The translations under genes and the position numbers were made by a program. DNA of 64,000 nt from an uncultured Methanosarcinales archaeon (GTDB lineage Archaea; Nanobdellota; Nanobdellia; Woesearchaeales; JACPIF01). Numbering within the stretch: the stretch's first letter is position 1; the number at the start of each line of letters is the position of its first letter. Shown in pieces: positions 703 to 56,187 of the stretch. The notes under the pieces were generated by a model. That model was given only the letters and a program-made list of their open reading frames with translations. It was not told the origin of the DNA and did no database searches. The stretch covers positions 152,246 through 216,245 of the forward strand of contig CAZRPY010000001.1 in NCBI GenBank assembly GCA_964602245.1. The letters run 5' to 3'.

Positions 703-1488
703 CTACGAAAACTCTATAGCAAACTTTATTTTGTGCTCTTTCTCTACTATATTGCTCTTTTCATCTGTTACTATGAGCTTTTTGCCAGTATTATAGCATA
801 ATGCGTAGATTTTTCTTTGATAGGATTTTAGATCGCACTCTTTTCCAAGAGCGCCTTTTCTTACTGATAATATAGCACCGTTTTGATCTCTTGCTAATCT
901 ATGATTTTGAGTGTCTGAGAAGGTTAATTGGCTTGAAAGCTTTGAGTTTTTGATAATGACTGAATATTTGTTTTTGTTAAGCTCTGTATTAACTACAATA
1001 TTAGATCCATCTTGGGATAGCTTATATTCTGCTTGGCTAATATGTTCATGAGCACATTCACAATTATTTTCTGTGCTAGAAGAGCAATTACTTAAATAGT
1101 CAAGGAAATCCATAAAGATTCCTTCATCACCTTCATAACAGCCTATGGCTAATGGAAATCCTGGTTTATTAGAGCCTTCTTTAAGATTAAATTTTAACAT
1201 TTCAGTATTAACACAGGCTTCTTTATCCTTTTCTTGTGAGCAGGAATTAGATATTTGTTTTAAGGCTTCTTCTATCTTGTCATAAACATCTAAATAGTAG
1301 TCTAAATCTATAGAGAAAGAAGGCCTGATGGAATAGGTGCCTATTACGATGTTATGAGGAATATTTTCTATAAATTGTTGTAAAGTTGCTTGACCTGTGA
1401 TTTTATTGCTTGGGTATAACTCAAGTAATATAGCTAGCCCTATTAATAGAAAAACTATTGCAGGTATTATAATAATTCTTTTTTTCAT
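703..1488 (-). CDS. Secreted or membrane-anchored hypothetical protein; last gene of the surface-protein operon
   Basis: The N-terminus is basic then hydrophobic (MKKRIIIIPAIVFLLIGLAILL). The gene is tightly packed on the same strand as its neighbours. Confidence 0.6.
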   Translation of the reverse strand: MKKRIIIIPAIVFLLIGLAILLELYPSNKITGQATLQQFIENIPHNIVIGTYSIRPSFSIDLDYYLDVYDKIEEALKQISNSCSQEKDKEACVNTEMLKFNLKEGSNKPGFPLAIGCYEGDEGIFMDFLDYLSNCSSSTENNCECAHEHISQAEYKLSQDGSNIVVNTELNKNKYSVIIKNSKLSSQLTFSDTQNHRLARDQNGAILSVRKGALGKECDLKSYQRKIYALCYNTGKKLIVTDEKSNIVEKEHKIKFAIEFS

Positions 1489-1491
1489 TTT

Positions 1492-2592
1492 TTAGCCTAT
1501 CATTCCATATAATGGTTTAACTTCTGCTAGCTTTTGTTTTGACATTTCTATTGCCCATAGTTCTGTGCCATATTCCCAGTGCCACCATTCACTAGGAAGA
1601 TTAGTAAAGCCTGCTTTAGTCATGATTTCTTTTAGCTTCTGTCTGCAATTATGTATGTCTATGCCTCTTGGATCTTTGTTATTAGCATAGTCGTCTATTT
1701 GGGACTTATCTAGAATGTTAATTGTGCCACAAGAATTTCTATTGCCATTAATAACTAGCCTTACATCAACTGCACCACCTGTCTGATGGCTTGATTTTCC
1801 TGCAGGAGCTGCATTTCTATTAATGCATTTACCATTTCTTAATTTCCCACATATTTTTTCTTGATCATCGTAGCTTCTGTAAGCATCGTTCACTATTAAT
1901 TCGTAGCCTTGGTCTTGAGCATATTTCTTTGCTAAATTTAATTGTTGCAGGGCTTGGGCTCTTAACTGACATATTGTATTTTTATCACGAGCTGAACAAG
2001 AAAAATCATATAGCTTCTCACTAGGCCCAGTTCCTATAGTTAGTAAAGGAGTTTGATAAGTTTCAATAGGATTTTGAATTTTTGCTAGTTGTGTCTTAAG
2101 AACTAAATCATAATTTACTCCATTAAGAGCTACTCCAAGGAACTTTAGATTTTTATCGTTAATAACAGAATATTCATAATTTTCTGCTTTCATATTTATA
2201 TCTTTATTTTTTTCTAGCCTTGGTTTAAAAGAGTTTTGGAATTCTTTCTTAATAGCTGTATCTATTTCATTTTTACTAGGGAAACAATTGTCATTTGCTT
2301 TATTCCATATAGCATAAGTTCCGTACTTATCGCATTTATTTAAAATACTTGGAATTTTATTAATTGCTTCCTGTAAAGTGTAATAAGCTGCTGACTGAAT
2401 AAATATTAGTTGGGAAAAAACCTCATTTTCATTATTATACATTGAAAGTGCTGATTCACCAATAAAAGTTACGTCTGGTCTGAAGTTTTTTACAGTTGTG
2501 CCAAATAAAGTTGCAACTGCTGCAACAAATCCGATTAATATTATATATATTAATACTGCTGATTTTTTATTTAAAATAGCTATTTTTGTCAT
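1492..2592 (-). CDS. Membrane-anchored peptidase M15 / VanY-like D-alanyl-D-alanine carboxypeptidase domain protein
   Basis: It has an N-terminal TM anchor. The C-terminal domain carries the LAS-metallopeptidase signature SxHxxGxAxD (SSHQTGGAVDV) and ExxH (EWWHWEY), plus a DxxR-like YRSYDDQ segment. Confidence 0.6.
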   Translation of the reverse strand: MTKIAILNKKSAVLIYIILIGFVAAVATLFGTTVKNFRPDVTFIGESALSMYNNENEVFSQLIFIQSAAYYTLQEAINKIPSILNKCDKYGTYAIWNKANDNCFPSKNEIDTAIKKEFQNSFKPRLEKNKDINMKAENYEYSVINDKNLKFLGVALNGVNYDLVLKTQLAKIQNPIETYQTPLLTIGTGPSEKLYDFSCSARDKNTICQLRAQALQQLNLAKKYAQDQGYELIVNDAYRSYDDQEKICGKLRNGKCINRNAAPAGKSSHQTGGAVDVRLVINGNRNSCGTINILDKSQIDDYANNKDPRGIDIHNCRQKLKEIMTKAGFTNLPSEWWHWEYGTELWAIEMSKQKLAEVKPLYGMIG

Positions 2593-3083
2593 TATGTTAC
2601 ACCTATGTCTTTCCCTATATTGAGGCTTATCGTAAGAATTTCTCCATTTGGAGCAGAGAGTTTGACTGAGGCTAACCTGGTTTTTGATCCTGCTGAATCA
2701 AAATTTTTATCTTTTATTTCTAAAGAGTGTATGGGTTCTATTCTTAACATCCATGCTACTTTAGAAGGATCTTTATAATGTGCTTTAAAGAAATTGTTAG
2801 TATAGTCTTCAAAGTATTTATAGTCGTTATTTGCTATTGCTAAAGCTAGTAAGTCTATAGTCTTTTTGCCTTTATCATCTACTGAACTAAGATATTCAAG
2901 TAGAATTCTTGCTCCTTCTGCTCTTTCTAGAGCATCATCTGCATACTGATTTATTTGGTTTGTAATATTGCTCTTTATGCCAAGAAAAAAGGGGATGGAT
3001 ACCCCTATTATAAATATAGCAAATATTACTTGAAGCCAGTCATCCATAATACCTCTTTTATTTAGCATTTTGTATCTCCACAA
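2592..3083 (-). CDS. Type IV pilin-like protein with class III signal peptide
   Basis: The N-terminus is MLNKRG|IMDDWLQVIFAIFIIGV. This is the archaeal prepilin pattern of a short basic n-region, Gly at -1, then a hydrophobic helix. Confidence 0.55.
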   Translation of the reverse strand: MWRYKMLNKRGIMDDWLQVIFAIFIIGVSIPFFLGIKSNITNQINQYADDALERAEGARILLEYLSSVDDKGKKTIDLLALAIANNDYKYFEDYTNNFFKAHYKDPSKVAWMLRIEPIHSLEIKDKNFDSAGSKTRLASVKLSAPNGEILTISLNIGKDIGVT

Positions 3084-3570
3084 TTAAGAAGCCTTTTGAT
3101 ATTTTCCCCTTGTCATAGATGTTAATTTCTTTAGTTTTCTTAGTGATAAGGGCAGAGTCATCAAAATTTTTAGTTGTTAGAATAATTTCCTGATTATTCT
3201 TAATATCTTTAAGAGTTAAACTAAAAGCTTTTACTGTTTTCTCTTTAAATTTTGATTTTTCTTCTACTGCATAGCATTTGTCTAAAGTTTCTTGATTAAA
3301 TTTTTCTATATCTATAGTATTAAAGAAATAATTGAATTCTCTTTGAGAAGCTGAAAAACATAATGGAGAGTTGATAAATCTTTGCAGAAAGATGAATGTA
3401 TCTAAGTTTTTTGGAGTTTCTATTTTTACATTGCCTATCCTTATTATTAGAAAGGTAAAAAGTAATAAGAGAATAGCGATAATAAACAATACTGCTACAT
3501 AAAAAATAACATCGTGTGCAAAAAGCTGGGCTTTTTTCCATCTTTTGGAGATTTTACTTCTTGTATTCAT
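3058..3570 (-). CDS. Hypothetical membrane-anchored protein
   Basis: It has a basic N-terminus followed by one TM helix (VIFYVAVLFIIAILLLLF). It overlaps its neighbours, consistent with an operon. Confidence 0.5.
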   Translation of the reverse strand: MNTRSKISKRWKKAQLFAHDVIFYVAVLFIIAILLLLFTFLIIRIGNVKIETPKNLDTFIFLQRFINSPLCFSASQREFNYFFNTIDIEKFNQETLDKCYAVEEKSKFKEKTVKAFSLTLKDIKNNQEIILTTKNFDDSALITKKTKEINIYDKGKISKGFLIVEIQNAK

Positions 3571-4484
3571 TTGTTGTATTCCTCTATACCTTTTATGATA
3601 GAAATTGAAAAATCTGAGGGTATTTTATGATAATTCTGATTTGCAATATTTCCTAATTCCAAGTAGATTGCAAAATCTTGATCTTTTAGGATATATCTTG
3701 GATCATTTGGCTCTACTCTATTTGTATCTATTGGAATAATTACATAGCTATCAACATTAACTCTTTCCATCATCTCGTTAATAATGAAACAGCTAACAGT
3801 AAGTGCTTCTTTTGTATTTCTGGAATTATGAGAGATATAAGCTTTAATATGATTGCTAGGAAGGTTGATATTGTTAATATTTAAAGCTAATAAGAACTTA
3901 TCAATTTGCAGCTGAGAAGACGGTATGTAATTAACACTTCCTTTAAGTCCATCTGAGATTTTTTCCAATTCTTTATACTCGTCTGAATCTTTTTTAGCCG
4001 CTGAATGGAGAATTATTGGTTGTGTAATTTTCCTAAAATTTTGTTCTTTATCGCATTCAAACTTATTTATAGCAAAAGTGTCATAGTCTATGTAAATATT
4101 CTTACCTTGCTTATTAATTGCAAAATATAATGGATTTTCTAGATTAATATTTTTAGGATTAATGTCATTTTCTTTTTGAGTTACAAAATAATAAATTCCT
4201 GGAGTAAGATCTCTGGCTTTTGTGGAGATTTCTACTTTGTTATTGTTTATGTTTATCCTATAGTTATAGAGGTCATTAAATTCTACATATGCATTTCCTC
4301 TCATTCCAGATAAAGCATCTATTGCTAAACCGATCTCTTTTGCTATTTCTTGTTTATAATGAATCTCATTACTTGCATAATCCTGCGCTTCATTTATAAA
4401 AAGCCAACCTACAAATATAGCTAGCACTATCTCTGCTACAACTATAACAGGATATTCTGTGCCTGTTTCTCCTCTTTTATTCAT
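3567..4484 (-). CDS. Type IV pilin-like protein with class III signal peptide
   Basis: The N-terminus is MNKRG|ETGTEYPVIVVAEIVLAIFVGWLFI. Confidence 0.55.
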   Translation of the reverse strand: MNKRGETGTEYPVIVVAEIVLAIFVGWLFINEAQDYASNEIHYKQEIAKEIGLAIDALSGMRGNAYVEFNDLYNYRININNNKVEISTKARDLTPGIYYFVTQKENDINPKNINLENPLYFAINKQGKNIYIDYDTFAINKFECDKEQNFRKITQPIILHSAAKKDSDEYKELEKISDGLKGSVNYIPSSQLQIDKFLLALNINNINLPSNHIKAYISHNSRNTKEALTVSCFIINEMMERVNVDSYVIIPIDTNRVEPNDPRYILKDQDFAIYLELGNIANQNYHKIPSDFSISIIKGIEEYNK

Positions 4485-4491
4485 TTTAGCA

Positions 4492-5157
4492 TTAAGGATA
4501 TCCTATATAAGAGCTAGGTGAGATTACATTACAATTTCTTTTTGGACATACTCCAACTTTTCCAAAGTCTTTTCTTACATATAATGCATTTAGAGTGTCT
4601 TTTGCATAGATGCCAAATATTTCTTGAAATAGCCTGGGGAAATCACTGCTTCTAATTATACCAAATCCATTTTTCCATGAATATGTAACAGTGTTTAGTC
4701 CTTGCCTAAGGTCGTTGATATGTGTGTAGTCTGTTATTATTACATTGTCCAAAGACCTACAGTTCATTGTTCCTACACATCTAAATTCTTTATCGTCAAT
4801 TAATATTTCTGAACATATACATACACAAGAGCTTTCTTTTTTGCATCCTGTTTCTTGGCTAGGTCTTGTAAGAGGCCTGACTGTACTTTCCTTTGATTGC
4901 AAAGTAAGGACTAATTCTAACTTATCTGCATTAGGAGCAAATCCGAAAACTGCGTTCTTGTCATTATCAAGAAAAAATGCTACTGGATCCTGAGAGCCTT
5001 CTTCTACGCTTTCGATTGCACTAACTAAAGTGTTAAAAGAATTTGAGGTTCTAGTAGTTATTTTAAAAATGTCTATTGCAATTTCAGTAGCAAAAACAAA
5101 AAGGATTATACCAATTACTAATAATATTATTGCTATAGTCACAAAACCTTTGGCCAT
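4492..5157 (-). CDS. Type IV pilin-like protein with class III signal peptide; Cys-containing C-terminal domain
   Basis: The N-terminus is MAKG|FVTIAIILLVIGIILFV. Confidence 0.6.
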   Translation of the reverse strand: MAKGFVTIAIILLVIGIILFVFATEIAIDIFKITTRTSNSFNTLVSAIESVEEGSQDPVAFFLDNDKNAVFGFAPNADKLELVLTLQSKESTVRPLTRPSQETGCKKESSCVCICSEILIDDKEFRCVGTMNCRSLDNVIITDYTHINDLRQGLNTVTYSWKNGFGIIRSSDFPRLFQEIFGIYAKDTLNALYVRKDFGKVGVCPKRNCNVISPSSYIGYP

Positions 5158-5159
5158 TT

Positions 5160-5474
5160 TTATTTAGATGATTTTCTTTTTTCTTCAATTTCTTTTCTAC
5201 AGATATCAGAAGGTGTTGGGCATTTTCCTTCAGAATCTTTTTCTTGGTTAGCATTGCAAGGACATGGATCAATAGTGTCAAAAACTCCATCATTGTCATG
5301 GTCTAGAGATAAGCCTGTTGCCGTATCTCCTATTGGTTTAGAGCTCTTGGAAAAGAGTTGTCCTGGGCCAAAAAAGGTATAGCCAATAACTATTAATGCT
5401 AATAGCCCTAGCATCATACCAACAATTACCCACATCATGCCACCTTCCATTGCTTTCTCATTCATTTGTATCAC
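5160..5474 (-). CDS. Small membrane-anchored protein with a thrombospondin-type-3-like Asp-rich Ca-binding motif
   Basis: It has a hydrophobic N-terminus. The C-terminus reads DHDNDGVFDTIDPCPCNANQEKDSEGKC, which is a DxDxDG Ca-binding-like motif. Confidence 0.5.
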   Translation of the reverse strand: MIQMNEKAMEGGMMWVIVGMMLGLLALIVIGYTFFGPGQLFSKSSKPIGDTATGLSLDHDNDGVFDTIDPCPCNANQEKDSEGKCPTPSDICRKEIEEKRKSSK

Positions 5475-5477
5475 CTT

Positions 5478-6212
5478 TTATGCGCATTTATATTGTTTTT
5501 GCAGATCTAAATTTCTTACATACTGAGGAGGGATACCTCTATCGTATGATGCTCCTAATAAACCTCTATAAGTTGGTAAAAAACAAATATTGTTTTGGTC
5601 AATATTAAACATTAAGTTTGAATCATCTAGCACTCCATTAGTTAGCTTTTGACCTGATTCATATTCCACTATAATTGTATTTTTCCCTTTAACTGTTATT
5701 TTATTGGCTCTTGCATATTTCTGTTGAGTAGTGTCTGGCTGTTTAAGAATGAACTTATTTATGAAATATCTTACTTGGCTTTGTCCAGTTACTACACAAG
5801 GATATTTCTGTTCTATAAACTCTCTCTTAACCTCCTCTCCTTTAGGAGCTTGTATTATTATAAATAAGCCATTATAAGCTTTCTGGCGAGATTTGTCTAA
5901 GACTATTGAATAGCTTTGGAAATCTTGAGGAAACTGAAGATTATAAATAAGGCATTCATTATTGTATTTAACATCTTTTAAGAAAGATACTAATGAGTTA
6001 TAAGCCTGGTTTAATTCTGGTGGTGGTGTTAGAGTTCCTGCTTCTATATCAGGTGTTTTGCCATAACTTACTGAAATCATGTTTATTAGGAAATTAAAAG
6101 CTGTTGTTAGAACACTAAATAACTTACCAGTCCATCCAAGGTAAACTACTAGGAGTAAACCTACTAGTGCTAAAAGAACTACTATTTTCAAAAGAGCTTT
6201 TTTGCCAATCAT
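5478..6212 (-). CDS. Secreted or membrane-anchored hypothetical protein
   Basis: The N-terminus is MIGKKALLKIVVLLALVGLLLVV. Its start overlaps the stop of the upstream small pilin ORF (ATGA overlap). Confidence 0.55.
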   Translation of the reverse strand: MIGKKALLKIVVLLALVGLLLVVYLGWTGKLFSVLTTAFNFLINMISVSYGKTPDIEAGTLTPPPELNQAYNSLVSFLKDVKYNNECLIYNLQFPQDFQSYSIVLDKSRQKAYNGLFIIIQAPKGEEVKREFIEQKYPCVVTGQSQVRYFINKFILKQPDTTQQKYARANKITVKGKNTIIVEYESGQKLTNGVLDDSNLMFNIDQNNICFLPTYRGLLGASYDRGIPPQYVRNLDLQKQYKCA

Positions 6213-6355
6213 CTTGAAAATTTAATAGCTGAAGCGTCTGGGGCTTTGCTAGTAAAATAAATATAAAGTAAGATAACTACAAGTATTAAAGCAGACATTA
6301 GCACTAGATAAACAACTGCATTTGCACCTATTTCAAAACCCTTTTTACTTTTCAT
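6209..6355 (-). CDS. Small (48 aa) archaeal pilin or flagellin-like protein, absent from the ORF track
   Basis: My translation of the minus strand 6355..6209 is MKSKKG|FEIGANAVVYLVLMSALILVVILLYIYFTSKAPDASAIKFSR*. It has a canonical class III signal (KKG|F...). Its stop overlaps the start codon of the next gene. Confidence 0.55.
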   Translation of the reverse strand: MKSKKGFEIGANAVVYLVLMSALILVVILLYIYFTSKAPDASAIKFSR

Positions 6356-6374
6356 GTTTTATTCTGTTTATTTT

Positions 6375-7622
6375 TTATTCTGGTATTATGCTGCATAATG
6401 GACCTTCCTGACCTGTTACTTTCTGGTCAGTTATCTGGCTAACTGTACTTAAATATATTGTGGAAGTTGGTCTTTGTCTCCACCAATCAACAAGTGGCAC
6501 ATATAGGTCTCTTACTCCTTGTTGTCCTATAAGAGCTCCAAAAATACCTCCTCCTATAGTTACTCCTGCTCCAATTACAATTGCTGGAATGCACAAAACT
6601 CCAGTTGCACAAGCTACTCCAGCAACTTTAGCTGCTAATAAGCCTGTTGCAGCAGCTGCGACAAATCCATAGCCACCAACTATTGCATTACAAATAGATG
6701 TAGTGCATTCTTTTGTAGGAGCACCAAAACTTATTGCATAAATCTCATTAGGCTCTATATCAGTAAGAATATATACACCTCCAGGACCAACACCTCTTTG
6801 GAGATAACTTAGATAACTAAGATCATTTTCTTTTTTAATATAGCAAGTCTCATCTCTAGGGCATTTCCAATTTGGATAGACAGTATAGTTTGGGCCAAGA
6901 TAACCTTTACTGCACTCTCCCCCATTATTTAAGCAATCAATATTACTGTAACAGCATCCTTCTCCTTTGCTAGCATGATTTTTCTTGCAGAAAGTATTTT
7001 TCTCATCAAATTCTATATTTCTTAAATCTGTTTTAATATGTTGTGTACATTCCTCTTTTTTATTTGCACAAAAACCACCTCTATCTTTGCCAAAAGTAAA
7101 GCATCTATGGGTTGTATCTTTAGCTTTGTAAGGGGTTGTTGCTAAATATTGGGTGAATTCCTCTGTAGAAATCTTTCCAGTTATCTTTGCGTTTTTCTTA
7201 ACTTTAAATACATAACATGTCTGACAATTATTAATCCAGGGACTTCCTTCCTTAAAAATATCTCCAGCTCTGCCTTCATCGTATCTTTGCCAGCAGTCTT
7301 TCATTAGATCTGCAATTGCTTTCTTTACAAGTTCCTCACTTTCTCCTTTTTTAGGAATTTCTTTCTTATCTACTGTGACACAGCCTTTTAGAGGAGCTCT
7401 TAAAGTTGCTAATCTTAAGTCTACCCCTAAATTTACATTAACTTGAATCTCGTGTCTTCTCAGATCAATATTTATCCTGCAAATTTCATCTTTAATAGCA
7501 TCATCTGCTCCTTGAAGTATTTTTGGAAAGAGTGGAAAGGTAAGGGCTACTCCAATAAATATAAGTATTAAGGCGCCAATTGTTGCTGTTAAAGCTTCTA
7601 CACCTCTTTTATTGGTTGACAT
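6375..7622 (-). CDS. Large type IV pilin-like, Cys-rich protein with a Gly/Ala-rich hydrophobic C-terminus
   Basis: The track ORF 6375..7661 begins at a TTG. The likely start is the internal ATG at 7622, giving MSTNKRG|VEALTATIGALILIFIGVAL, a canonical class III signal. The body has many Cys. The C-terminus is a Gly/Ala/Val-rich hydrophobic stretch. Confidence 0.65.
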   Translation of the reverse strand: MSTNKRGVEALTATIGALILIFIGVALTFPLFPKILQGADDAIKDEICRINIDLRRHEIQVNVNLGVDLRLATLRAPLKGCVTVDKKEIPKKGESEELVKKAIADLMKDCWQRYDEGRAGDIFKEGSPWINNCQTCYVFKVKKNAKITGKISTEEFTQYLATTPYKAKDTTHRCFTFGKDRGGFCANKKEECTQHIKTDLRNIEFDEKNTFCKKNHASKGEGCCYSNIDCLNNGGECSKGYLGPNYTVYPNWKCPRDETCYIKKENDLSYLSYLQRGVGPGGVYILTDIEPNEIYAISFGAPTKECTTSICNAIVGGYGFVAAAATGLLAAKVAGVACATGVLCIPAIVIGAGVTIGGGIFGALIGQQGVRDLYVPLVDWWRQRPTSTIYLSTVSQITDQKVTGQEGPLCSIIPE

Positions 7623-7623
7623 T

Positions 7624-7779
7624 TTATGGAAGTTTAGTTTTAAAGAAGTTTGTAATCGCAAAATATAATAGTATGATTAATAACAAAGAAATGATAAGTA
7701 TAATTGCAAATTGAGCAGCTCTAGCTCCGGATATCTCTGAATCCTGGGCTTTTTTGTTTGATAAAATCTTGTTTTTCAT
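7624..7779 (-). CDS. Small (51 aa) membrane protein, possibly pilin-like, absent from the ORF track
   Basis: My translation is MKNKILSNKKAQDSEISGARAAQFAIILIISLLLIILLYFAITNFFKTKLP*. Its stop lies 1 nt upstream of the start of the 6375..7622 gene. Confidence 0.4.
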   Translation of the reverse strand: MKNKILSNKKAQDSEISGARAAQFAIILIISLLLIILLYFAITNFFKTKLP

Positions 7780-7846
7780 AAGTTTATTACTTAAGAACTT
7801 TGTATATAAGCCTTTCTAAAGCTAGGCTTCAGTAAAAATAAGTTTC

Positions 7847-7965
7847 GTTTTGCCATCGGTTCGCATTTTGCTGTTTCTTATGATGTTGACTTTCCCCGTA
7901 AGGGACTTCCCCCTTGTCAAAGCTAAGTTGCCTTAGAAGAATGCTCGCAAAATTGATGGCAAAAC
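7847..7965 (+). ncRNA. Candidate structured ncRNA or structured repeat element, family copy 1 of 3
   Basis: The terminal inverted repeat is gttttgccatc / gatggcaaaac. The conserved strands are ggttcgcatt and gaatgctcgcaaaatt. The internal hairpin is gttgac-tttcccc-GTAA-ggg-acttccccc-tgtcaa. A TATA-like tgtatataa lies at 7801-7809 and the run ttatttttatc lies downstream. The strand was assigned from the GNRA loop and TATA orientation. Confidence 0.45.
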
Positions 7966-8109
7966 TTATTTTTATCAGAGCTTAAAGCTAAAAAGAGATT
8001 TTATCGCTAAATAAGATAACTAAAGAAATAATAAGTATAAGAATAAAGGAGCTTACTAAAATAACTGATAAAGAAATACCTTGAGCTTTAATGCTACTCA
8101 TATTAGCTA

Positions 8110-8385
8110 TTATGTTGGAATACAACACTTAGTGTTTTGGGTGTCTTTTTGGCCAGCTATAAAGCATGATGCTCCTGGAAGATAGACATTATCCTGTGGA
8201 CAATCTTGACCTGTTGGAACACATTTGCCACCTTTAGCTTGGCAGTCCTCAACGCCAACTCGGAATATAGCAATTCTTCCAGTAAATATAAGCACTAAGA
8301 TAACTAAAACTATTAAGGCTATCGCTGCAACTATAATTACATTTAAAGATAGCTCAGCTCCTCTTTTATTTGATTTTTTAAGCAT
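8110..8385 (-). CDS. Type IV pilin-like protein (91 aa) with class III signal peptide and Cys-rich C-terminus
   Basis: The N-terminus is MLKKSNKRG|AELSLNVIIVAAIALIVLVILVLIF, a textbook archaeal prepilin signal. Confidence 0.7.
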   Translation of the reverse strand: MLKKSNKRGAELSLNVIIVAAIALIVLVILVLIFTGRIAIFRVGVEDCQAKGGKCVPTGQDCPQDNVYLPGASCFIAGQKDTQNTKCCIPT

Positions 8386-8466
8386 GACAATGCCTCTATA
8401 TTTCTTTTAAACCTATTATTTGATGTATATAAAGCTTTCTATGTGATTTAAATTTATATGATTTAT

Positions 8467-8973
8467 TTAGCTACATATATCCATCACTAATGTTAAGGTT
8501 CCTGCATCTGTCTGGATATAGTTTTGTTTTGATTCCTTTTCTCCTGTGCATCTTCCATTTGTATTCTTTAGTATAACTTGGCCTGGTATCCTAGCCTCAA
8601 ATGAGTAGCTTTGATTGCCCCATGCTGTTAAAGTTGAATCAAAGATAAGGCTAATAGTGCTTTTTAAATAGTCACATGACCTTTGGTTATTTTGACATTT
8701 GAGCTGGGTATTAGGAGAGTTATAATTTTCTGCGCAATCCTTAAAGAGGTTATTTACAGAATTTCCAAAACAGTCTATAGTTGTTGTTCTTAAGATAGAA
8801 CTTAAAAGATTGGATGCTAATTGTGTTTGAGTGAATGTTTTTTTAATACTAGAGGGCTCTTTATTTACAGTGAATTGTATTATAAATAATATTCCAAGTG
8901 ATATGAGAATAACTATAACTGCTAACCCCATGATTTCCATTTGTGATTTCTTACTGGTTATTTTGATTTGCAT
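8467..8973 (-). CDS. Pilin-like or membrane-anchored secreted protein
   Basis: The N-terminus is ...SKKSQMEIMGLAVIVILISLGILFII. The start region is tandemly duplicated: atgcaaatcaaaataa occurs twice at 8958-8989. Confidence 0.5.
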   Translation of the reverse strand: MQIKITSKKSQMEIMGLAVIVILISLGILFIIQFTVNKEPSSIKKTFTQTQLASNLLSSILRTTTIDCFGNSVNNLFKDCAENYNSPNTQLKCQNNQRSCDYLKSTISLIFDSTLTAWGNQSYSFEARIPGQVILKNTNGRCTGEKESKQNYIQTDAGTLTLVMDICS

Positions 8974-9126
8974 ATTATTTTGATTTGCATAACTAGTGGA
9001 TTTCTTTGTGTTGGCGTAGTTAATGCAAATTATTTTAATATTTTTTATTGATTAATGCGAGTTATTGCTATATTATCTTTATTAGTTCGATGCAAATTAT
9101 TATTGTTTTGACTGGCTTTACTTTCT

Positions 9127-9606
9127 TTATTGAATCGGATAATAAGTAACCTCTAAAATGCCAAAATTATATTTATTGCTAACAGGATCATATAAGGATA
9201 CAGGTATTGGGGTGAACAGATAACCTGTTCCAGTAACATTCCTATCATAAATAAGCCATTCCTTTTTAATTGGATATATTTGTCTTACAATCAATTTACT
9301 GGATTCAAAATTATCATAATAGTTTACTTGTAAAGTTTGGTCAGCCTTAAGCATATTGCTCATAGCCTCTAATTTTAATATGTCTATACAGTTGTCTGTC
9401 ACAATATTATTGGAGGAGCATTGAAGTTCTGGTAAGGTAAAGGCTCTCTGGGCAACCTCTACTGCTCTTTTCTCATTTTCTTCAATTATTAAGCCTTGGT
9501 AGCTAGTTGCCTGGATTCTTGCATAAAAAACAAAGCCAAATATAACAAGCAAAAAGAAAATAAACATAACGCCTATTGTTTCTGTCATTTTAATCTGAGC
9601 TTTCAT
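9127..9606 (-). CDS. Pilin-like or membrane-anchored protein
   Basis: The N-terminus is MKAQIKMTETIGVMFIFFLLVIFGFVFY. Confidence 0.45.
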   Translation of the reverse strand: MKAQIKMTETIGVMFIFFLLVIFGFVFYARIQATSYQGLIIEENEKRAVEVAQRAFTLPELQCSSNNIVTDNCIDILKLEAMSNMLKADQTLQVNYYDNFESSKLIVRQIYPIKKEWLIYDRNVTGTGYLFTPIPVSLYDPVSNKYNFGILEVTYYPIQ

Positions 9607-9607
9607 T

Positions 9608-10675
9608 TTAATATACCTCTCTACATGACAGTCTTTGAAGTTGTTGATTTCTGGTTTTTAGCTCTGAAGAAGATTGTAAGATTAATGCTGTTTCTTGTTG
9701 AGAAATGGCAGAAGATAATTTTTCTGAATTAGATTTTAAAGATTGTAATGCATCAAGGCTTAAAGATAATTGAGTTGCACAGGTTGTATCTCCTGACTGT
9801 TGGTAAGATTTAATTAAGCTATTAGTCCTATGTATATAGATATCAGAAACAATAGACATCTGCTTAAAAGCTCTTTGCATGTTGCAGTTATATGATTTAT
9901 AATCATCTGCAAATACTGCAGCAAATACAGATTCTTTACCAAGATAGTAGCTAATGCCTGCAGGAACTGGTGACCAATAACCATTTATTTTATTATAGAA
10001 TCTTAACTCACCAAAACTTTCTAGAGAATTTCCTACTATATTAATTGCTGATACATCTTCATTATCTAGAGTAATTATATCTAAAAGACCTTCACTACCA
10101 ACTGGATCATGGTTAAAGAATACTAACCTGATTCTATAATTGCCTTCACTTTTAATATTATTGGTATCTTTTATTACATCTTTATTAAGTAGTAATTGTT
10201 TATTATTTCCTTTGACAAGAAAATTTGGAGGTAAAGACTTGTTCAGTTCTTTGGCTATAGCAGAATCGCCAATTATAACATATTTTATATTTGGGCTTGT
10301 TACCATTAGGAAATTTGAAATCCTATAAGGCATACCCCAATCTTTTGACCATGCAGTAACCTTAAAGCCTTTAATTTTACTTGGAGAGAAAGAGATTCCT
10401 GTTTGTGCAGGATTAAGATTTTCTACAGAATATCCTTCACAATTATAGCTTATTTCTTTGCCGACTAAGTCTATTATAGATGCTGTGCCTGTACTGGACC
10501 TAGCACCAGTGAATATGGTTTTTATATCAGACCTGACTTTTGATGATACTTTTACCTCTGAGATGCTTTTTTGCCTTTCAGCTATACCTATAAAGAACAT
10601 AAGGATAATGCCACCTATTATTAAAATAAATATCCAGTTAAATTGTATCTCAACAAAACCTTTATTACCGAGCAT
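9608..10675 (-). CDS. Type IV pilin-like protein with class III signal peptide
   Basis: The N-terminus is MLGNKG|FVEIQFNWIFILIIGGIILMFFI. Confidence 0.6.
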   Translation of the reverse strand: MLGNKGFVEIQFNWIFILIIGGIILMFFIGIAERQKSISEVKVSSKVRSDIKTIFTGARSSTGTASIIDLVGKEISYNCEGYSVENLNPAQTGISFSPSKIKGFKVTAWSKDWGMPYRISNFLMVTSPNIKYVIIGDSAIAKELNKSLPPNFLVKGNNKQLLLNKDVIKDTNNIKSEGNYRIRLVFFNHDPVGSEGLLDIITLDNEDVSAINIVGNSLESFGELRFYNKINGYWSPVPAGISYYLGKESVFAAVFADDYKSYNCNMQRAFKQMSIVSDIYIHRTNSLIKSYQQSGDTTCATQLSLSLDALQSLKSNSEKLSSAISQQETALILQSSSELKTRNQQLQRLSCREVY

Positions 10676-10680
10676 TTTGA

Positions 10681-11187
10681 TTAGGTCCAGCTAGAGAATT
10701 CTACATAGCTACCCTTACCTTCTAGCTTTAGAGCAATTTTGCCAAAAATAACATTTTGGCAGAAGTAATGCTCTTTTGGTATCCTTATATTTCCTATGTC
10801 TATAGAGATAACGTTTGTGTCCTTTGATATTAAAAACATGTTTTTACTTATTCTATCTTTCCAGCTGTTGCAGATAACTGGATTATAATCCTGATTACCT
10901 AGAGTACAAATATTTGTTGATTCCTGGCCAGTATATGAAAGATCAATAAAACATATCTTGTCATATTTATTTGGGATGCTTACTTCTTCCTTAATGACTG
11001 TGCCATAATCTGAAGTAGTCTTTTTAACAGCTGACGATAATTGTTTACCAAGCTGAAGAATAACTACTGTATCTGCTTTTTCACCCAGATTTCTAATAGA
11101 ATTATACCCATAGACCATTATTAAAGAGAATAATACTATGGCTAAAATGTAGATAAAAACTTCTCCAATTACTTGGGCATTTTTCAT
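10681..11187 (-). CDS. Pilin-like or membrane-anchored protein
   Basis: The N-terminus is MKNAQVIGEVFIYILAIVLFSLIMV. Confidence 0.45.
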   Translation of the reverse strand: MKNAQVIGEVFIYILAIVLFSLIMVYGYNSIRNLGEKADTVVILQLGKQLSSAVKKTTSDYGTVIKEEVSIPNKYDKICFIDLSYTGQESTNICTLGNQDYNPVICNSWKDRISKNMFLISKDTNVISIDIGNIRIPKEHYFCQNVIFGKIALKLEGKGSYVEFSSWT

Positions 11188-11196
11188 CTTTTAATG

Positions 11197-14100
11197 TCAC
11201 TTTTTCCTCTTTTTTATTAAGATGTCTAATTTCTCAAATGAATTCTTGCTGGTTTTTAATTTTGGAACTTCTTTTTGAGCTTCCTTCTTTATCTCTGACT
11301 TCTTTTGCTCAGGCTTCTTAATCTCTGATATTTTCTCTTTACTTATCTCCTCTTCTTTTTTGCCTAGGCCAAAAATATCTAAGATACTACTTTTTGTCTT
11401 AAACTTCTCTTTCATCCTAAGCTCAAATAATTTATGTTTCTCCAGTTCTAACTGTGGTTTTTTAGTTGGCCTTAATTTAATTTCCTCCATTTTTTGATAT
11501 TGAGGCTGTTGAACTTTTGGTTTTGTTATTTGGAATTGGGGCAAACTTATTCTTTGAATTGATTTTAGTTTGTAGCCGTATTTTTTATATCCAAGAATTG
11601 CACCTGCAATAATTAAAATAAAGGCTAAGCTATATATTATATAGGGAAGAATTCTTGAGCTAGGGTGAGAATTCTTGTCTAAAGGATCTGTGCCTGCTAA
11701 TATTTCCACATTATCTCTATAGCCGTCATCGTCTGTGTCTGCTTTGAAAGGACCTGTTTTGGCTCTCTGTTCTTCAATATTATTTAGCTCATCTGTGTCA
11801 GTATCTTCTTCTCCGTCGTTTATACCATTATTATCTGAGTCTGGTAAAAGTTTATTTAAATTATGAAGGTCTTCCCACTCATTTGATAAGCCATCTCCAT
11901 CTATGTCTTCATCACAGATATCTCCAACGCCATCTTTATCCAAATCCTCTTGCTCAGGATTCTCTTCTTCAAGACAATTATCTCTTGAATCTGGAATGCC
12001 GTCTTCATCTTCATCTGGCTCCAGTAATACACACTTATTATGGATACAGTCTGCACCAATTGTGCAATCATCTTTAATATTGCATTGCCTACCTGCTTCA
12101 CACCTTAAAGGACAATAAATGCCACAATCTATGTCACCTTCGCCAGAATCAAGAACGTTATTTGAGCAAGGGCTGGGCTTTTTGCATACACCAAACTCAC
12201 AGTTGCCTGAGGAGCAATCTAAATTTTGGATGCATTTGGCTTCAAGGCTGCATTTATTTTGGCATGCGCTGCCACAATCTATGTCTGTTTCTTGGCCGTT
12301 TTTTATTCCATCATTACATGCTTCTTTTTTGCATTTCTTTGTTGATGGATGGCAAAAGCCAGAGCTACAATCAGAATTTTCTATGCATTTTGCATCTTCT
12401 TGGCAACCCTGGCATGAGCCACCGCAATCTATATCTGTTTCAGTTTGATCTTGTATATTGTTTGTGCAGTGGCTTGGCTTCTTTGAAATATCAATAGTAA
12501 CTCCATTACTTTCAAGTATTTTACTTGTCAAGCCAACTATATTTGTAGAATCTACTTTAAAGACATACTTTGTCTTATCAGTTAGATTGAGAGGCCTATT
12601 TGAGCTGTCTTTAGTAATTACTACAAATTCTCCACCTACTGTACTTTGGGTTTGGTTGATAATTGAGGATCTAGACGGCAGGGTTTCAAGGCTGTATCTG
12701 TAGTATTTAACCAAACTTTCATTTTCCTCTGCAAGCCATTTCACTCTTAGCCTGTCAGTTTCCCAAGTAAATTCTGGATCTTCTACTAGAGTGCTGCTAT
12801 CATTTACATATAACATTGCAGGGGGTGTTGTGTCAATTGTAAAAGCAATAGTAGCTATATTAGAAAAGACTCCTGCTACTATACATCTTGCATAATACGT
12901 ATGTGTTATTCCCTGCTGTAGATTTGCAACTGTTCTTTGATGCCTATAGCCAATTTCCCCAAAAGAATTTGAGATTGAATCTTGAGCTTGGCCATAATAG
13001 CATTGGGCTTTTTTATTTGTAGATATATCTAGGATTACATTTGATGTATTCGAATAACGAGGGGTATTAACCTGGATAGTTAAAGGCTCACTTTCATTGA
13101 TTTTGAAGGTAATAATTGAGGTATTGGATAACAAACCTGCTTCATTCTCACAGGAAACAAAATAAGTATATTCTTGCTTTGCTCTTGTAACAGTTAAATT
13201 TTGGCTATGGACCTTTTGATAATTTTCCTTATCTGGGAAAAAATTAGGCATTTCAGGATAGATTTTCTTTGAATCATCATATCTGCAAATAGTGTTGTCA
13301 TCTGTCTGAACTTTAAGCACTGTTTTTAGATCTGATTCTATTATTATTTCTGGTTGTGCAAAAGCTGCCAGAATAATAGGTGGTGTTTTGTCTATAGCAA
13401 CTTTAAACTCCTTTTCTATAACTCCCCAGACACCATCATCACATTTTACAAATAAAGCATGGTCTTTTTGATCGCCTTCTGGTATATCCTTAAAATTGTT
13501 AATTCTGTGAATTAAGCCTCCTGTTGCAGAGAAGTCTTTCATATTCTCAAAAATTGTTCCAGGCAAATCCATGATATATTTGCATTTGGCATCATTATCA
13601 GTGCCTATTGTTATGTTAAATACAGATTCCTTAGAAACTCCAGTTTTTGGGATTAACATAGTAATAACCGTTGGGACAGCATTTACTATAAAGCTAAAAC
13701 TGCCATTAACAGAATTTCCAGCATAATCAGTTGCCTTGACAAAGACTGATTTTAAGCCATCGCTAAGGTTTAGCTTTATTTGATGAAATCTATTATCAAG
13801 AGTAGTAAAATTGTCCTTTAAGTCAGATGTGAGTCCAGTAACTATAACATTATTCAGGTCAACTTCCTTAGTGAAGTTTAATGTTAAAACAAAGTTTGTA
13901 GATTTTATAGTAATATTATTCGGAGAGCCTGTAAACTTTGGTGGATTATTGTCAATATTAATTGTTATTACCCTTGGAGATTTCATAAATCTTCCAAAAT
14001 TGTTCCTTGCCATAATAGTAAGGTTATATTGGCCATCTGGCAATGGAGAGTTTGGAATAAAAGAATGGATAGTATTATTCTCGAAAACTTGTTGAGTAAG

Positions 14101-16080
14101 AGGTATACTAGTCTTATTTTCACCTATAAAACTAGAGAAGCTAATTATAGAAAAGTCTGAGAAAGTAATATTAATTATTGGTTTTATGTTGTTCGTGTAG
14201 AAAATTCTATTTGCAAATTTATCGCCTTGAACTGAAACCTTTAGTATAACAGGTCCAGTGACATTAGGAGAGGCATTAAAATTTAATGTCTTAATTACCC
14301 CTAAATTATTTGAAGGATCTCTTGTATAGAATTTTAATATATTTTCTCCAGGACTAAGGGTTAGGATTTGTTTAACTCCATCAAAAACCTTTAAGTTATT
14401 AACTATTAAGAAAGTATTAGTAGTTATTATTGGGAATTTTGAGCCATCAGTGCAGCTTTCAGTTAAAGTATTACAGATAAATATTTGATAATTGCTAGTA
14501 ACTCTTCTAGCAGAACCTATTTTTTCTGTTTTGTCTAAGATGTCTATATTGAATTGAGTTGGTATTCCTTCTTCAAATGTTGTTGGCACTATATTGGTAT
14601 CAGGAGGAAAGTAGTCTGCTTCACATTGTAAATTAGTGCAATCCCTATCTTGGCTGTAGTCTGCACTTTTGCTACATTCTCCAAATACTGAAGCGCAAAC
14701 GCCTATCCTACATTTGTCATTACTTCTAGAGGTTATGTTATTGGTAGAAGGATCTATTGAAGCCTTATTGAAGGAAAGGCATTCTTCGTTACTATAGTCC
14801 TTACATGTAACTTTTTCGCAGCTTAGGCTTTCCCCATTCTTAAAGAAGCATGGAAAGTCTTGAGTTGAAAGAGCTTCTGATTTCTCCTGAGTACAAATGT
14901 CAAATACTGAATTATAAGCTTTTAATGTTGGTGAGCTTGGGCTTCCCTTTTCAACACACCATTGGCAATTTTCCTTGTTCTTGTTAATACAAACACCTAT
15001 TCCAAGAGCTTGTATTGTATCTTTCCATAAGCAACCTGAGATTTGGCAGTTATCTGTTTCACATGCTGATTTTGTTTTATAATCATAACAATCCATGTTG
15101 GGATCACAGTTGTAGCATGTGTTGACTATTGTTGAAGATCTGTCAAAGAAGCAATATCTGTAATTTTGCTGAGTACCTTCACATCTTTGCTTATCTGTAA
15201 ACAGCCCAAAAGGATTATTAGTTGTATTTGTGCATTGAGTTTTTATTGCACATCTTGCTACACTTCCATCAGAAATACATGCACAAGATTGTCCTGTAAA
15301 GCAGTCTGCTGTTCCTGAGTTGCAATTTACTACTGGACTACTAAGTATATTTTCTTCATTACAGAAAAATGCTTTATTAAATCTTGAGGAAAAGGTATTT
15401 AATATTTCATTATTAAAGTTACTTGCTGTAAAGCCCTTTTTTGAGATAAGATAGGAAGAGTATTGGTTATAATATCCTTTATTTATGCAGAATTTGTCTT
15501 GGGTATTTCTATTAAAGCATTCAAGGTTACCTATTGAGAAATTAGAGCTAATTAATGAGGATTTGTCTTGAGTCCTGAAATAGCCTGTAACTTTATATGA
15601 ATAGTCCTTATCGAATAATAAGTCATCTGATTGATCAGTAAAGAAGTTGTCAGTAGTTGTGCCAATTAATTTAAAGTTACAAGTTGGCAAGTCACATCTT
15701 GAAATATTATAGAACTCTGCTGGACAATCAGATATCCATGTTAGAGTTACCTGCCTTTTACCTTGAACTGTAATTTTCTCAAGATTTTTAAGCTTTGGAG
15801 AGAAAGAAGGCTCATTGCAAGAAGTAAGATTAAGGCTTAATGTCGGGCTTCCAGAGCCGCAAACACTTGGACAGGTTTGCCTGCTGGAGGGGATTACAAA
15901 CCTAAACTGACAATTTTCTCTGCTTACAAAAGAATTTGGAGTTGCTATATTGCCATTACAACAACAGCCTGCATCTCCTGCTTTAACTAGATTAGATAAA
16001 GAAAGTAAGATAATTAACGATAAGAATATAATAGCTATATAAACTAAACTATTTCCTATAACTTTTATTTTGGCTTTCAT
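11197..16080 (-). CDS. Giant (1627 aa) cell-surface adhesin-like protein with signal peptide, Cys-rich repeats, thrombospondin type-3-like Ca-binding repeats and a C-terminal TM anchor with a Lys-rich tail
   Basis: It has an N-terminal signal. There are three roughly 48-aa repeats, each containing the motif ETDIDCGGxC...DCSSGxC. Asp-rich motifs DKDGVGDICDEDIDGDGLSNEWE and DSDNNGINDGEEDTDTDE are TSP3-like DxDxDG. A C-terminal hydrophobic segment ILPYIIYSLAFILIIAGAILG is followed by a K/E-rich tail. Confidence 0.7.
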   Translation of the reverse strand: MKAKIKVIGNSLVYIAIIFLSLIILLSLSNLVKAGDAGCCCNGNIATPNSFVSRENCQFRFVIPSSRQTCPSVCGSGSPTLSLNLTSCNEPSFSPKLKNLEKITVQGKRQVTLTWISDCPAEFYNISRCDLPTCNFKLIGTTTDNFFTDQSDDLLFDKDYSYKVTGYFRTQDKSSLISSNFSIGNLECFNRNTQDKFCINKGYYNQYSSYLISKKGFTASNFNNEILNTFSSRFNKAFFCNEENILSSPVVNCNSGTADCFTGQSCACISDGSVARCAIKTQCTNTTNNPFGLFTDKQRCEGTQQNYRYCFFDRSSTIVNTCYNCDPNMDCYDYKTKSACETDNCQISGCLWKDTIQALGIGVCINKNKENCQWCVEKGSPSSPTLKAYNSVFDICTQEKSEALSTQDFPCFFKNGESLSCEKVTCKDYSNEECLSFNKASIDPSTNNITSRSNDKCRIGVCASVFGECSKSADYSQDRDCTNLQCEADYFPPDTNIVPTTFEEGIPTQFNIDILDKTEKIGSARRVTSNYQIFICNTLTESCTDGSKFPIITTNTFLIVNNLKVFDGVKQILTLSPGENILKFYTRDPSNNLGVIKTLNFNASPNVTGPVILKVSVQGDKFANRIFYTNNIKPIINITFSDFSIISFSSFIGENKTSIPLTQQVFENNTIHSFIPNSPLPDGQYNLTIMARNNFGRFMKSPRVITINIDNNPPKFTGSPNNITIKSTNFVLTLNFTKEVDLNNVIVTGLTSDLKDNFTTLDNRFHQIKLNLSDGLKSVFVKATDYAGNSVNGSFSFIVNAVPTVITMLIPKTGVSKESVFNITIGTDNDAKCKYIMDLPGTIFENMKDFSATGGLIHRINNFKDIPEGDQKDHALFVKCDDGVWGVIEKEFKVAIDKTPPIILAAFAQPEIIIESDLKTVLKVQTDDNTICRYDDSKKIYPEMPNFFPDKENYQKVHSQNLTVTRAKQEYTYFVSCENEAGLLSNTSIITFKINESEPLTIQVNTPRYSNTSNVILDISTNKKAQCYYGQAQDSISNSFGEIGYRHQRTVANLQQGITHTYYARCIVAGVFSNIATIAFTIDTTPPAMLYVNDSSTLVEDPEFTWETDRLRVKWLAEENESLVKYYRYSLETLPSRSSIINQTQSTVGGEFVVITKDSSNRPLNLTDKTKYVFKVDSTNIVGLTSKILESNGVTIDISKKPSHCTNNIQDQTETDIDCGGSCQGCQEDAKCIENSDCSSGFCHPSTKKCKKEACNDGIKNGQETDIDCGSACQNKCSLEAKCIQNLDCSSGNCEFGVCKKPSPCSNNVLDSGEGDIDCGIYCPLRCEAGRQCNIKDDCTIGADCIHNKCVLLEPDEDEDGIPDSRDNCLEEENPEQEDLDKDGVGDICDEDIDGDGLSNEWEDLHNLNKLLPDSDNNGINDGEEDTDTDELNNIEEQRAKTGPFKADTDDDGYRDNVEILAGTDPLDKNSHPSSRILPYIIYSLAFILIIAGAILGYKKYGYKLKSIQRISLPQFQITKPKVQQPQYQKMEEIKLRPTKKPQLELEKHKLFELRMKEKFKTKSSILDIFGLGKKEEEISKEKISEIKKPEQKKSEIKKEAQKEVPKLKTSKNSFEKLDILIKKRKK

Positions 16081-17327: not shown

Positions 17328-17361
17328 TATACCTCCTTTTTTAAGCTATAAGAGTATTTTT

Positions 17362-20052: not shown

Positions 20053-20055
20053 TTT

Positions 20056-24566: not shown

Positions 24567-24572
24567 TTTTTC

Positions 24573-55050: not shown

Positions 55051-55126
55051 CCGGTCACTTATCTAATACTTAGTAGAGCATTATTTAAACTTTTCTTATT
55101 ATAAATGCTATTTATTTATCTTTGAT

Positions 55127-56071: not shown

Positions 56072-56187
56072 TTTGATTAATGTAGGTAACTCTTTTATAT
56101 CATATATAAAAGTTTCTACTCTGCTGTAGTTTTGATTATAGTATATTGACTATATTATATAAAATCTAGGTCCTTTGTTTCTTTCAT

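Follow-up and report, generated by a model that had tools for sequence, protein, structure and literature searches.

Within a 64,000-nucleotide stretch of DNA from an uncultured archaeon (the window), an open reading frame (ORF) at 1492-2592 on the minus strand encodes, from an ATG start, a 366-residue protein which, by sequence and predicted structure, holds an intact zinc peptidase domain of the M15/LAS type. We propose, at a probability of roughly 0.55, that this surface-tethered peptidase is the exchangeable wall-cutting part of a Woesearchaeota surface apparatus directed at bacteria. The proposal starts from what is directly observed, namely an enzyme family with its catalytic residues, a carrier that recurs in many proteins, a variety of domains fused to it, a conserved locus and features of an extracytoplasmic protein.

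The protein consists of a signal/anchor (residues 1-33), an N-terminal module (N-module, residues ~7-160) and a LAS/M15 domain (residues ~190-355). The coding region of the catalytic domain (residues ~190-356) lies at 1525-2025 on the minus strand and includes R239, S267, H269, D276, E335 and H338. It carries the motif GKSSHQTGGAVDV at residues 265-277 and SEWWHWEY at residues 334-341, the signatures from which a reading of the letters alone (hereafter the sequence-only reading) had predicted a LAS metallopeptidase. That prediction was borne out by the profile searches, since both Pfam families that it pointed to matched above their curated cut-offs: Peptidase_M15 (PF01427) with 42.8 bits against 27 (residues 206-346) and VanY (PF02557) with 38.7 bits against 25 (residues 209-284). 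The four other full-length family members likewise scored above the M15 Pfam cut-offs, and a phmmer search against PDB sequences returned only LAS enzymes (YodJ/LdcB, VanX, two VanY-like carboxypeptidases and the Ply500 endolysin).

When the protein was aligned to VanX (PDB 1r44), R239, H269, D276, E335 and H338 corresponded to VanX R71, H116, D123, E181 and H184, which we take to be the catalytic arginine (R71), the three zinc ligands (H116, D123 and H184) and the catalytic glutamate (E181). The anticipated zinc triad is thus present at the sequence level, in a domain whose predicted fold is LAS. All five residues are invariant in the five full-length members and in 76 of 76 aligned M15 sequences. 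The AlphaFold2 model, built on this 76-sequence alignment, has predicted local distance difference test (pLDDT) values of 85-98 over residues ~190-355. Its 21 best Foldseek matches in the PDB all have the LAS/M15-type or the related Hedgehog fold (VanX, LdcB, VanY, VanXY, Ply500, LysB4, ChiX), with a probability of 1.00 to VanX, LdcB, VanY, VanXY and Ply500 and with VanX as the top match.

The closest full-length relatives come from Candidatus Woesearchaeota; four were found besides the window protein, at 78, 63, 51 and 48% identity, the last being MBI2546272.1 from a groundwater Candidatus Woesearchaeota metagenome-assembled genome (MAG). All remaining relatives are proteins of the VanX/DdpX type, 215-260 residues long and without signal peptides, whose matches, at 30-38% identity, are confined to the C-terminal ~40% of the query.

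The sequence-only reading had named the domain a VanY/M15-type D-Ala-D-Ala carboxypeptidase. Its placement among the M15/LAS peptidases holds, but the label covers only one possible specificity. The VanY profile aligned only over positions 3-81 of 132, and the C-terminal half of the domain matches PF01427 instead. From the catalytic Arg to the first His there are 29-30 residues in the five archaeal proteins (29 in the window protein) versus 48-50 in 71 VanX-like sequences; in this the archaeal proteins resemble VanY/LdcB, where the spacing is ~30 (about 33 in the alignment to YodJ). From Asp to Glu they are VanX-like, with 57-58 residues (58 in the window protein) versus a median of 59. The truncated VanY match is explained by this split, with an N-terminal half that is VanY/LdcB-like in spacing and a C-terminal half that is VanX-like, and the domain is best described as a probable hybrid of the two. 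With its 366 residues, anchor, extra module and short Arg-to-His segment, the protein falls outside a strict VanX-type (M15D) assignment. The loss of ~20 residues between Arg and His may open the active site to larger substrates; in VanXY, a mobile cap over the active site decides between dipeptide and pentapeptide hydrolysis, and VanY would have no cap (review, PMC6403190). DD- or LD-carboxypeptidase, endopeptidase and dipeptidase are thus all candidate activities.

At its N-terminus, the protein carries a class III-like signal/anchor over residues 1-33, NKKS/AVLIYIILIGFVAAV. At the level of the motif, NKKS/AVLIYIILIGFVAAVATLF follows the class III signal pattern, with a basic stretch, a small residue and a hydrophobic helix of ~20 residues. 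The membrane anchor, which the sequence-only reading had also noted, is backed by hydropathy and by the predicted models. Eight cysteines are invariant among the five full-length family members and, together with the basic stretch and the hydrophobic helix, they fit a location outside the cytoplasm. The guanine-cytosine (GC) content of the M15-encoding half of the gene is 36.6%, compared to 27.0% in the N-module half and a mean of 33.1% for the gene cluster, a contrast that is compatible with, and hints weakly at, a foreign origin of the catalytic domain. Recent horizontal transfer of the whole gene was considered and rejected, only the catalytic half being modestly GC-richer.

The N-module (coding region at 2113-2574, minus strand, delimited by profile search and structure model) recurs as a carrier of other domains. 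A profile built from residues 1-200 of three family members and run against 1.84 billion representative proteins at E <= 1e-3 yielded 88 cluster representatives of about 100 to 1100 residues in length, every one of which matched at its own N-terminus (~residues 1-160). All members with names belong to Candidatus Woesearchaeota. The 88 N-modules gave no matches when run by word index against a database of 5.8 billion proteins. The model of the carrier (pLDDT 90.2) comprises a transmembrane helix, a long helix, a beta-hairpin, a second helix and a second beta-hairpin, and G45, C87, C103 and P105 are invariant or nearly so. A [KR][KR] pair stands just before the helix in 78 of 84 members, and in these 78 the residue after the last basic one is Gly (35), Ala (29) or Ser (14), followed most often by Gln. 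The basic pair and the G/A/S residue after it identify this as a class III, prepilin-peptidase-type pattern.

Behind this carrier, the enzymes vary. Pfam searches of the 88 proteins detected SLT in 10, VanY in 9, Peptidase_M15 in 8, Peptidase_M23 in 8, 3D in 4, Glucosaminidase and Lysozyme_like in 3 each, and Amidase_2 and NlpC/P60 in 1 each, with fn3 or Big_13 domains on a few. VanY hits overlap with M15 hits, and SLT with Lysozyme_like, within the same proteins; by our estimate, a murein hydrolase is present in roughly 36-38 of the 88. The catalytic domain follows directly after the module, at ~residues 190-345, whether it is of the VanY (P0085), M15 (P0090), Amidase_2 (P0091), M23 (P0098) or SLT type (P0110). 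P0085 has a full VanY-type domain, and the M15 domain of the window is of another subtype, only ~30% identical to such carriers. These families are unrelated in fold and chemistry and include glycosidases, amidases, metallopeptidases and cysteine peptidases. The sole property common to them is the cleavage of bacterial peptidoglycan, which is our strongest argument: where unrelated enzyme classes on one carrier all cut murein, murein would be the substrate under selection.

The locus tells the same story as the carrier. We compared the window with related contigs L001-L005, L009, L010 and L012-L015, and examined the slot directly upstream of the RPA-like/RadA/TRAM/LigT/S2 genes. This slot is occupied by M15 in the window, L001-L005 and L009, by SLT in L012 and L013, by M23 in L015, and by module proteins lacking a Pfam domain in L014 and in L010 (Candidatus Woesearchaeota GCA_030651135.1). 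Wherever the sequence was long enough to tell, the module protein holds this same slot, at the end of a colinear cluster of ~20 genes. The P0005 and P0003 lineages have in common with the window, in this order, the giant protein, ~14 small proteins of matching sizes, the module protein, the RPA-like protein, RadA, TRAM, LigT and ribosomal protein S2, and the phmmer comparison gave ordered orthologues for almost every gene from 11197 to 703 (L002, L004, L012, L013). In the window, the M15 gene is the second-to-last of a co-oriented run from 20580 to 703 with intergenic distances of -26 to +208 nt; its start codon shares 1 nt with the upstream stop codon, and the next gene begins 3 nt downstream. 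A bacterial cell wall as the target, which the sequence-only reading had suggested, appears much better supported now that the same module and slot are seen to carry SLT or M23 in other lineages, and further murein hydrolases across the family.

The gene that follows (703-1488, minus strand) encodes a 261-residue membrane-anchored protein with eight Cys and an anchor helix of its own, defined by homology search and here called domain 2. It is 60% identical to the N-terminal 261 residues of L004:11129-12568, which, like the L005 gene at the same position (P0003 lineage), consists of domain 2 and a C-terminal Amidase_2 (95 bits). In the P0003-lineage locus two different murein hydrolases are therefore adjacent, M15 and then Amidase_2, a MurNAc-L-Ala amidase (MurNAc, N-acetylmuramic acid). 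A hidden Markov model of the 261-residue family matched an internal region in 40 of the 88 module proteins, starting either at ~residue 160-190, right after the N-module, or at ~340-400, after an inserted hydrolase. Because of these two arrangements, the ancestral protein appears, as far as sequence comparison can tell, to have been N-module plus domain 2, with hydrolases inserted between them. In the window lineage the N-module protein and domain 2 are separate adjacent genes, and since this split is kept in all M15-bearing loci it is not an assembly error. Lying between N-module and domain 2, the hydrolase forms part of a structural component of the cluster; it is no chance neighbour.

A provirus or endolysin origin was rejected, given that the locus is syntenic across lineages, adjoins RPA, RadA and ribosomal protein S2 and contains no phage genes. 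L012 also encodes, between the RPA-like gene and the remaining downstream block (13628-14794, minus strand), a 388-residue TEN_YD-shell protein of the Rhs/teneurin type, which may represent a polymorphic-toxin element beside the apparatus.

The cluster itself comprises about 16 small co-oriented genes at 2592-11187 on the minus strand, recognized by N-terminal motif, colinearity and spacing (2592-3083, 3058-3570, 3567-4484, 4492-5157, 5160-5474, 5478-6212, 6375-7661, 7624-7779, 7988-8128, 8110-8385, 8467-8973, 9127-9606, 9608-10675 and 10681-11187). Between 11187 and 1492, ~14 of 16 genes encode a [KR][KR][G/A/S] motif followed by 1-6 residues, an acidic residue and a hydrophobic helix, as in KG/FVEIQFNWIF, NA/QVIGE, RG/AELSLNVII and KS/QMEIMG, and orthologues from loci with otherwise <=50% identity keep this class III-like motif. 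A basic stretch and a hydrophobic helix open each product of the run 20580-703, and Cys-rich sequences are common among them. Pfam gave no hits on the small cluster proteins, and NCBIfam, run on ten neighbouring proteins, assigned them to no pilin or other family.

Upstream of the small genes lies a giant gene (11197-16080, minus strand), whose 1627-residue product contains 74 Cys, Big_13 and TSP3 calcium-binding repeats, as established by Pfam and by Cys count, and is presumed to be an adhesin. Among the conserved genes of the colinear cluster it comes first (L002, L004, L012, L013; the related flanks end inside the giant gene). Three more co-oriented genes at 16077-20580 (minus strand), for proteins of 416, 896 and 174 residues, each with an N-terminal hydrophobic helix, are probably the upstream end of the operon. 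The 896-residue protein (17362-20052, minus strand) has 63 Cys and a proline-rich PPPPSPPP stretch. Among the small proteins, that encoded at 5160-5474 shows a TSP3-like repeat below the cut-off. The 428-residue product of 6375-7661 (minus strand) has a class III-like N-terminus, NKRG/VEALTAT, 20 cysteines and, near its C-terminus, a Gly/Ala-rich hydrophobic segment (~residues 326-375, GGYGFVAAAATGLLAAKVAGVACATGVLCIPAIVIGAGVTIGGGIFGALIG) that resembles glycine-zipper membrane-insertion segments; by this analogy, it might serve for insertion into a target membrane.

In agreement with the sequence-only reading, the DNA comes from an archaeon, a tiny one of the DPANN/Woesearchaeota type: the window, with a GC content of about 32%, encodes TBP, MCM, PolD DP1/DP2, Orc1/Cdc6, Hjc, tRNA-splicing endonuclease and FEN1 as well as RFC, aIF2-beta, a PAN-like ATPase and aRF1, a gene set that marks the DNA as archaeal. 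A scan of species-representative genomes recovered a single good locus from Woesearchaeota and, besides it, a 2.4-kb contig with the label Methanosarcinales. The latter (L006, CAZBGH010000213.1, 2389 bp) carries a 62%-identical copy of the M15 gene and stems from a co-assembled MAG labelled 'uncultured Methanosarcinales archaeon'; a binning error is the most likely explanation, rather than a real occurrence outside Woesearchaeota.

In the mechanism that we propose, the zinc peptidase would act outside the cytoplasm on the peptide part of bacterial peptidoglycan, cutting D-Ala-D-Ala or a different stem-peptide bond that involves a D-amino acid. A lineage-specific carrier, made of the prepilin-type signal/anchor helix and an alpha/beta module of ~130 residues, would tether it to the archaeal surface. 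This carrier would belong to a structural protein (N-module plus domain 2) forming the last component of the ~20-gene surface cluster, which would also supply the giant Cys-rich adhesin-like protein and ~16 pilin-signal-like proteins, and could be incorporated with them into a filament or complex. Evolution would have placed varying hydrolases just after the carrier: M15 here, and SLT, M23, Amidase_2, glucosaminidase, 3D or NlpC/P60 elsewhere. As the archaeon presumably has no murein of its own, the apparatus most likely binds a bacterial cell, and the hydrolase, if active on living bacteria, would open or trim the wall just where the two cells touch, allowing attachment to, penetration of or feeding on a bacterial host or prey. 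A bolder version, in which the ~20-gene cluster encodes an as yet undescribed host-contact organelle of Woesearchaeota, built of type IV-filament-like subunits, giant adhesins and a terminal carrier that has repeatedly received different murein hydrolases, matched in each lineage to the wall chemistry of its bacterial host, is put forward tentatively, and we would sooner bet against it than for it.

Several points weigh against the proposal of a wall-cutting apparatus. A hydrolase cannot be recognised in about 50 of the 88 carrier proteins and is thus not strictly required by the apparatus. In the M15 protein, Pfam detected catalytic-domain hits only, and no LysM, SH3, PG_binding or similar wall-binding domain. 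The nearest relatives of its catalytic domain are dipeptidases of the VanX/DdpX type, ~230 residues long and without signal peptides, and such enzymes use free D-Ala-D-Ala, not the sacculus. We know of no bacterial host of any Woesearchaeota, and the statement that murein synthesis genes are lacking applies to the 64 kb that the analysis covered. The sequence-only reading had placed the gene in a pilin-like operon, of which the tight packing and the class III-like motifs conserved in orthologues stand, while the pilin identity does not follow: besides the lack of an NCBIfam pilin, the N-module has no convincing structural relative in the PDB and its fold is not clearly that of a pilin. No assembly ATPase, platform protein or prepilin peptidase was found among the ORFs of >=120 residues in the window, nor did the flanking sequence of the related loci contain type IV filament assembly genes. 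A groundwater study (10.1101/2020.05.14.094862) reports that DPANN genomes generally lack type IV pilus components, and a 2026 preprint reports some type IV filament systems in DPANN.

The most serious rival explanation is scavenging, in which tethered hydrolases would digest peptidoglycan debris, muropeptides or D-Ala-D-Ala from dead bacteria, with no contact to live ones, and would thereby provide an archaeon of reduced metabolism with amino acids and sugars. The kinship of the catalytic domain to VanX/DdpX-type dipeptidases and the missing peptidoglycan-binding domain both speak for it, and E. coli DdpX is linked to the use of D-Ala-D-Ala in starvation. In addition, peptidoglycan from dead bacteria has been proposed to feed Pacearchaeota through an LD-carboxypeptidase already published for that group (PMC11537232). 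We nevertheless regard scavenging as rather unlikely, because the enzyme is inserted in a structural component of a conserved adhesin-rich cluster and does not lie beside transporters, and because the domains that are swapped include endo-acting wall cutters (SLT, M23, glucosaminidase) typical of wall breaching. The ~20 residues lost before the first zinc His, compared to the dipeptidases, may also admit larger substrates. Less probable still is a diffusible weapon, released by signal cleavage or proteolysis, that would kill competing bacteria at a distance in the manner of haloarchaeal hydrolases against Halalkalibacterium. Class III-type signal cleavage leaves the hydrophobic helix on the mature protein, which would therefore stay anchored; moreover, the locus is chromosomal, syntenic and tied to structural genes, neither patchy nor plasmid-borne, and there is no wall-binding domain to hold a free enzyme on its target. 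These features count for more, in our view, than the diversity of fused domains, which resembles bacteriocin-type arms-race turnover, and the existence of bactericidal archaeal peptidoglycan hydrolases (PMC12352652).

We give very little credence to a self-directed role, where a polymer in the envelope of the archaeon itself (murein-like, pseudomurein-like or some other D-amino-acid polymer) would be remodelled by the hydrolase for assembly of the apparatus. The gene does lie within a surface-structure operon, and bacterial trans-envelope machines have wall hydrolases of their own, such as VirB1, EtgA and FlgJ. The organism is archaeal, however, with no murein synthesis genes seen in 64 kb; exchange among at least seven enzyme families looks like varied foreign targets and not like housekeeping, and a hydrolase is missing altogether from about half of the module proteins. 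The alternative of a pseudomurein-like substrate, raised by the sequence-only reading, is itself unlikely. Pseudomurein contains only L-amino acids and no MurNAc, and SLT and Amidase_2 need MurNAc-containing murein, so that it offers no substrate for these slot-mates or for D-Ala-specific LAS peptidases. It would surprise us just as much if the M15 domain only bound D-Ala-D-Ala termini in the way of a lectin, or if its peptidase activity were aimed at a different peptide containing D-amino acids. Specificity cannot be read from sequence, and the domain mixes VanX-like and VanY-like features, but all five catalytic or metal-binding residues are invariant across members of only 48-78% identity, and the slot-mates are all murein hydrolases of unrelated chemistries, which points to murein cleavage as the selected function.

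Woesearchaeota are among the most abundant uncultured archaea, and proposals of their interaction with bacteria have so far come mainly from scattered SLT-domain genes. Here, murein cutting would be built into a conserved surface apparatus whose carrier accepts at least seven unrelated wall-hydrolase families, and genomic evidence of this kind, from a swappable-carrier locus, speaks much more strongly for selection on the cutting of bacterial walls. If the host-contact organelle were real, no molecular machinery of an archaeal parasite or predator of bacteria would have been described before it, and the type of hydrolase in each genome would predict the wall type of the host. The carrier, domain 2, the giant adhesin and the pilin-like set offer targets for antibodies, imaging, host prediction and enzymology, and the carrier-borne enzymes might be a source of new antibacterial lysins.

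The window encodes a second murein-type hydrolase, of 847 residues (57230-59773, minus strand), with SLT at residues 681-764. SLT (PF01464) scored 36 bits against a cut-off of 21.3, the catalytic ES motif is kept, and the carrier module was looked for in this protein and is absent; the two murein-type hydrolases counted by the sequence-only reading are thus present and independent. Directly downstream of the SLT gene, at 54094-57228 (minus strand), are three tandem paralogues, 25-29% identical, with lipoprotein-type signals ending in Cys and no Pfam hit, which may form a second surface gene set. Divergent from the surface cluster is a pair on the plus strand consisting of an AdoMet decarboxylase gene (20655-21023) and, after it, a gene for spermidine synthase fused to an N-terminal membrane domain resembling the major facilitator superfamily (21020-22621, 533 residues). 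The lowest-GC stretch of the window (24001-26000, 24%) contains a gene for a 489-residue UbiA-family prenyltransferase and an ORF of 327 residues with no Pfam hit. At 51612-52472 (plus strand) lies a Cas4/PD-(D/E)XK-type nuclease gene, with no CRISPR array or other cas genes evident nearby, although no repeat search was made. Scans of the window for tRNAs and Rfam families gave no hits.

Among characterized enzymes, the VanX/DdpX group (MEROPS M15D, PF01427, PDB 1r44) is the nearest by Pfam score and by Foldseek match, and it shares the catalytic set, the SxHxxGxAxD and EWWH motifs and the Asp-to-Glu spacing. Those proteins have ~200-260 residues in a single domain and no signal peptide, whereas the window protein is anchored, has 366 residues and a foreign N-module, and is short of ~20 residues between Arg and the first His (29 versus 48-50). 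VanY/LdcB (MEROPS M15B, PF02557, PDB 4ox3, 4mph, 5hnm) shares the Pfam VanY match above cut-off, an Arg-to-His spacing of ~30 and the fold; VanY is also N-terminally membrane-anchored and extracytoplasmic and acts on stem peptides. In contrast to this group, the window domain fits only positions 3-81 of the 132-position profile and is VanX-like in its C-terminal half.

At the level of the whole apparatus, it is well established that VirB1, EtgA, FlgJ and the peptidoglycan-hydrolase effectors of type VI secretion systems are encoded within, or work with, surface machines, and that diverse effectors can ride on a conserved delivery part, as proposed here. The bacterial machines cut their own wall or inject by a contractile device, whereas the producer in our case presumably has no murein and shows no evident injection machinery. 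Modular type IV pilins (PilB/PilC, Streptococcus sanguinis; PMC8179133) likewise combine a prepilin-type carrier with exchangeable grafted modules, and the class III-signal 'bindosome' proteins of Sulfolobales (10.64898/2026.04.22.720090) follow the same logic of display by carrier plus module, with an N-terminal motif that fits. Unlike these, the present carrier does not demonstrably have the pilin fold and has no assembly genes nearby, and a cargo of murein hydrolases appears in neither source.

Large extracellular SLT (GH23) proteins of Woesearchaeota and Pacearchaeota have been proposed to act against bacterial walls (Castelle 2021, fam00969; Vigneron 2022; PMC8204110, PMC9723730, PMC10936187). 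They come from the same organisms and would serve the same purpose, and SLT is found here both at 57230-59773 and on some carriers, but those reports concern one enzyme class and mention no shared carrier, other hydrolases or conserved locus. Archaeal murein hydrolases have also been surveyed, with prominence in Nanoarchaeota, and some were shown to kill bacteria (Strock et al. 2025, PLoS Biol, PMC12352652). To be counted in that survey, a catalytic domain had to be accompanied by a cell-wall-binding domain from Pfam, so that the window protein would have escaped it; M15/VanY and pilins do not occur in its text. Its enzymes are secreted, patchy and often plasmid-borne, whereas ours is anchored, lies in a syntenic chromosomal cluster and has no wall-binding domain. 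In a limited literature search, we did not find a description of the carrier, of the various hydrolases that it bears and their placement between two conserved domains, or of its constant position in the genome. Thus, the general idea of murein hydrolases in DPANN archaea is known, while the architecture presented here, and the evidence that it yields, appear to be new.

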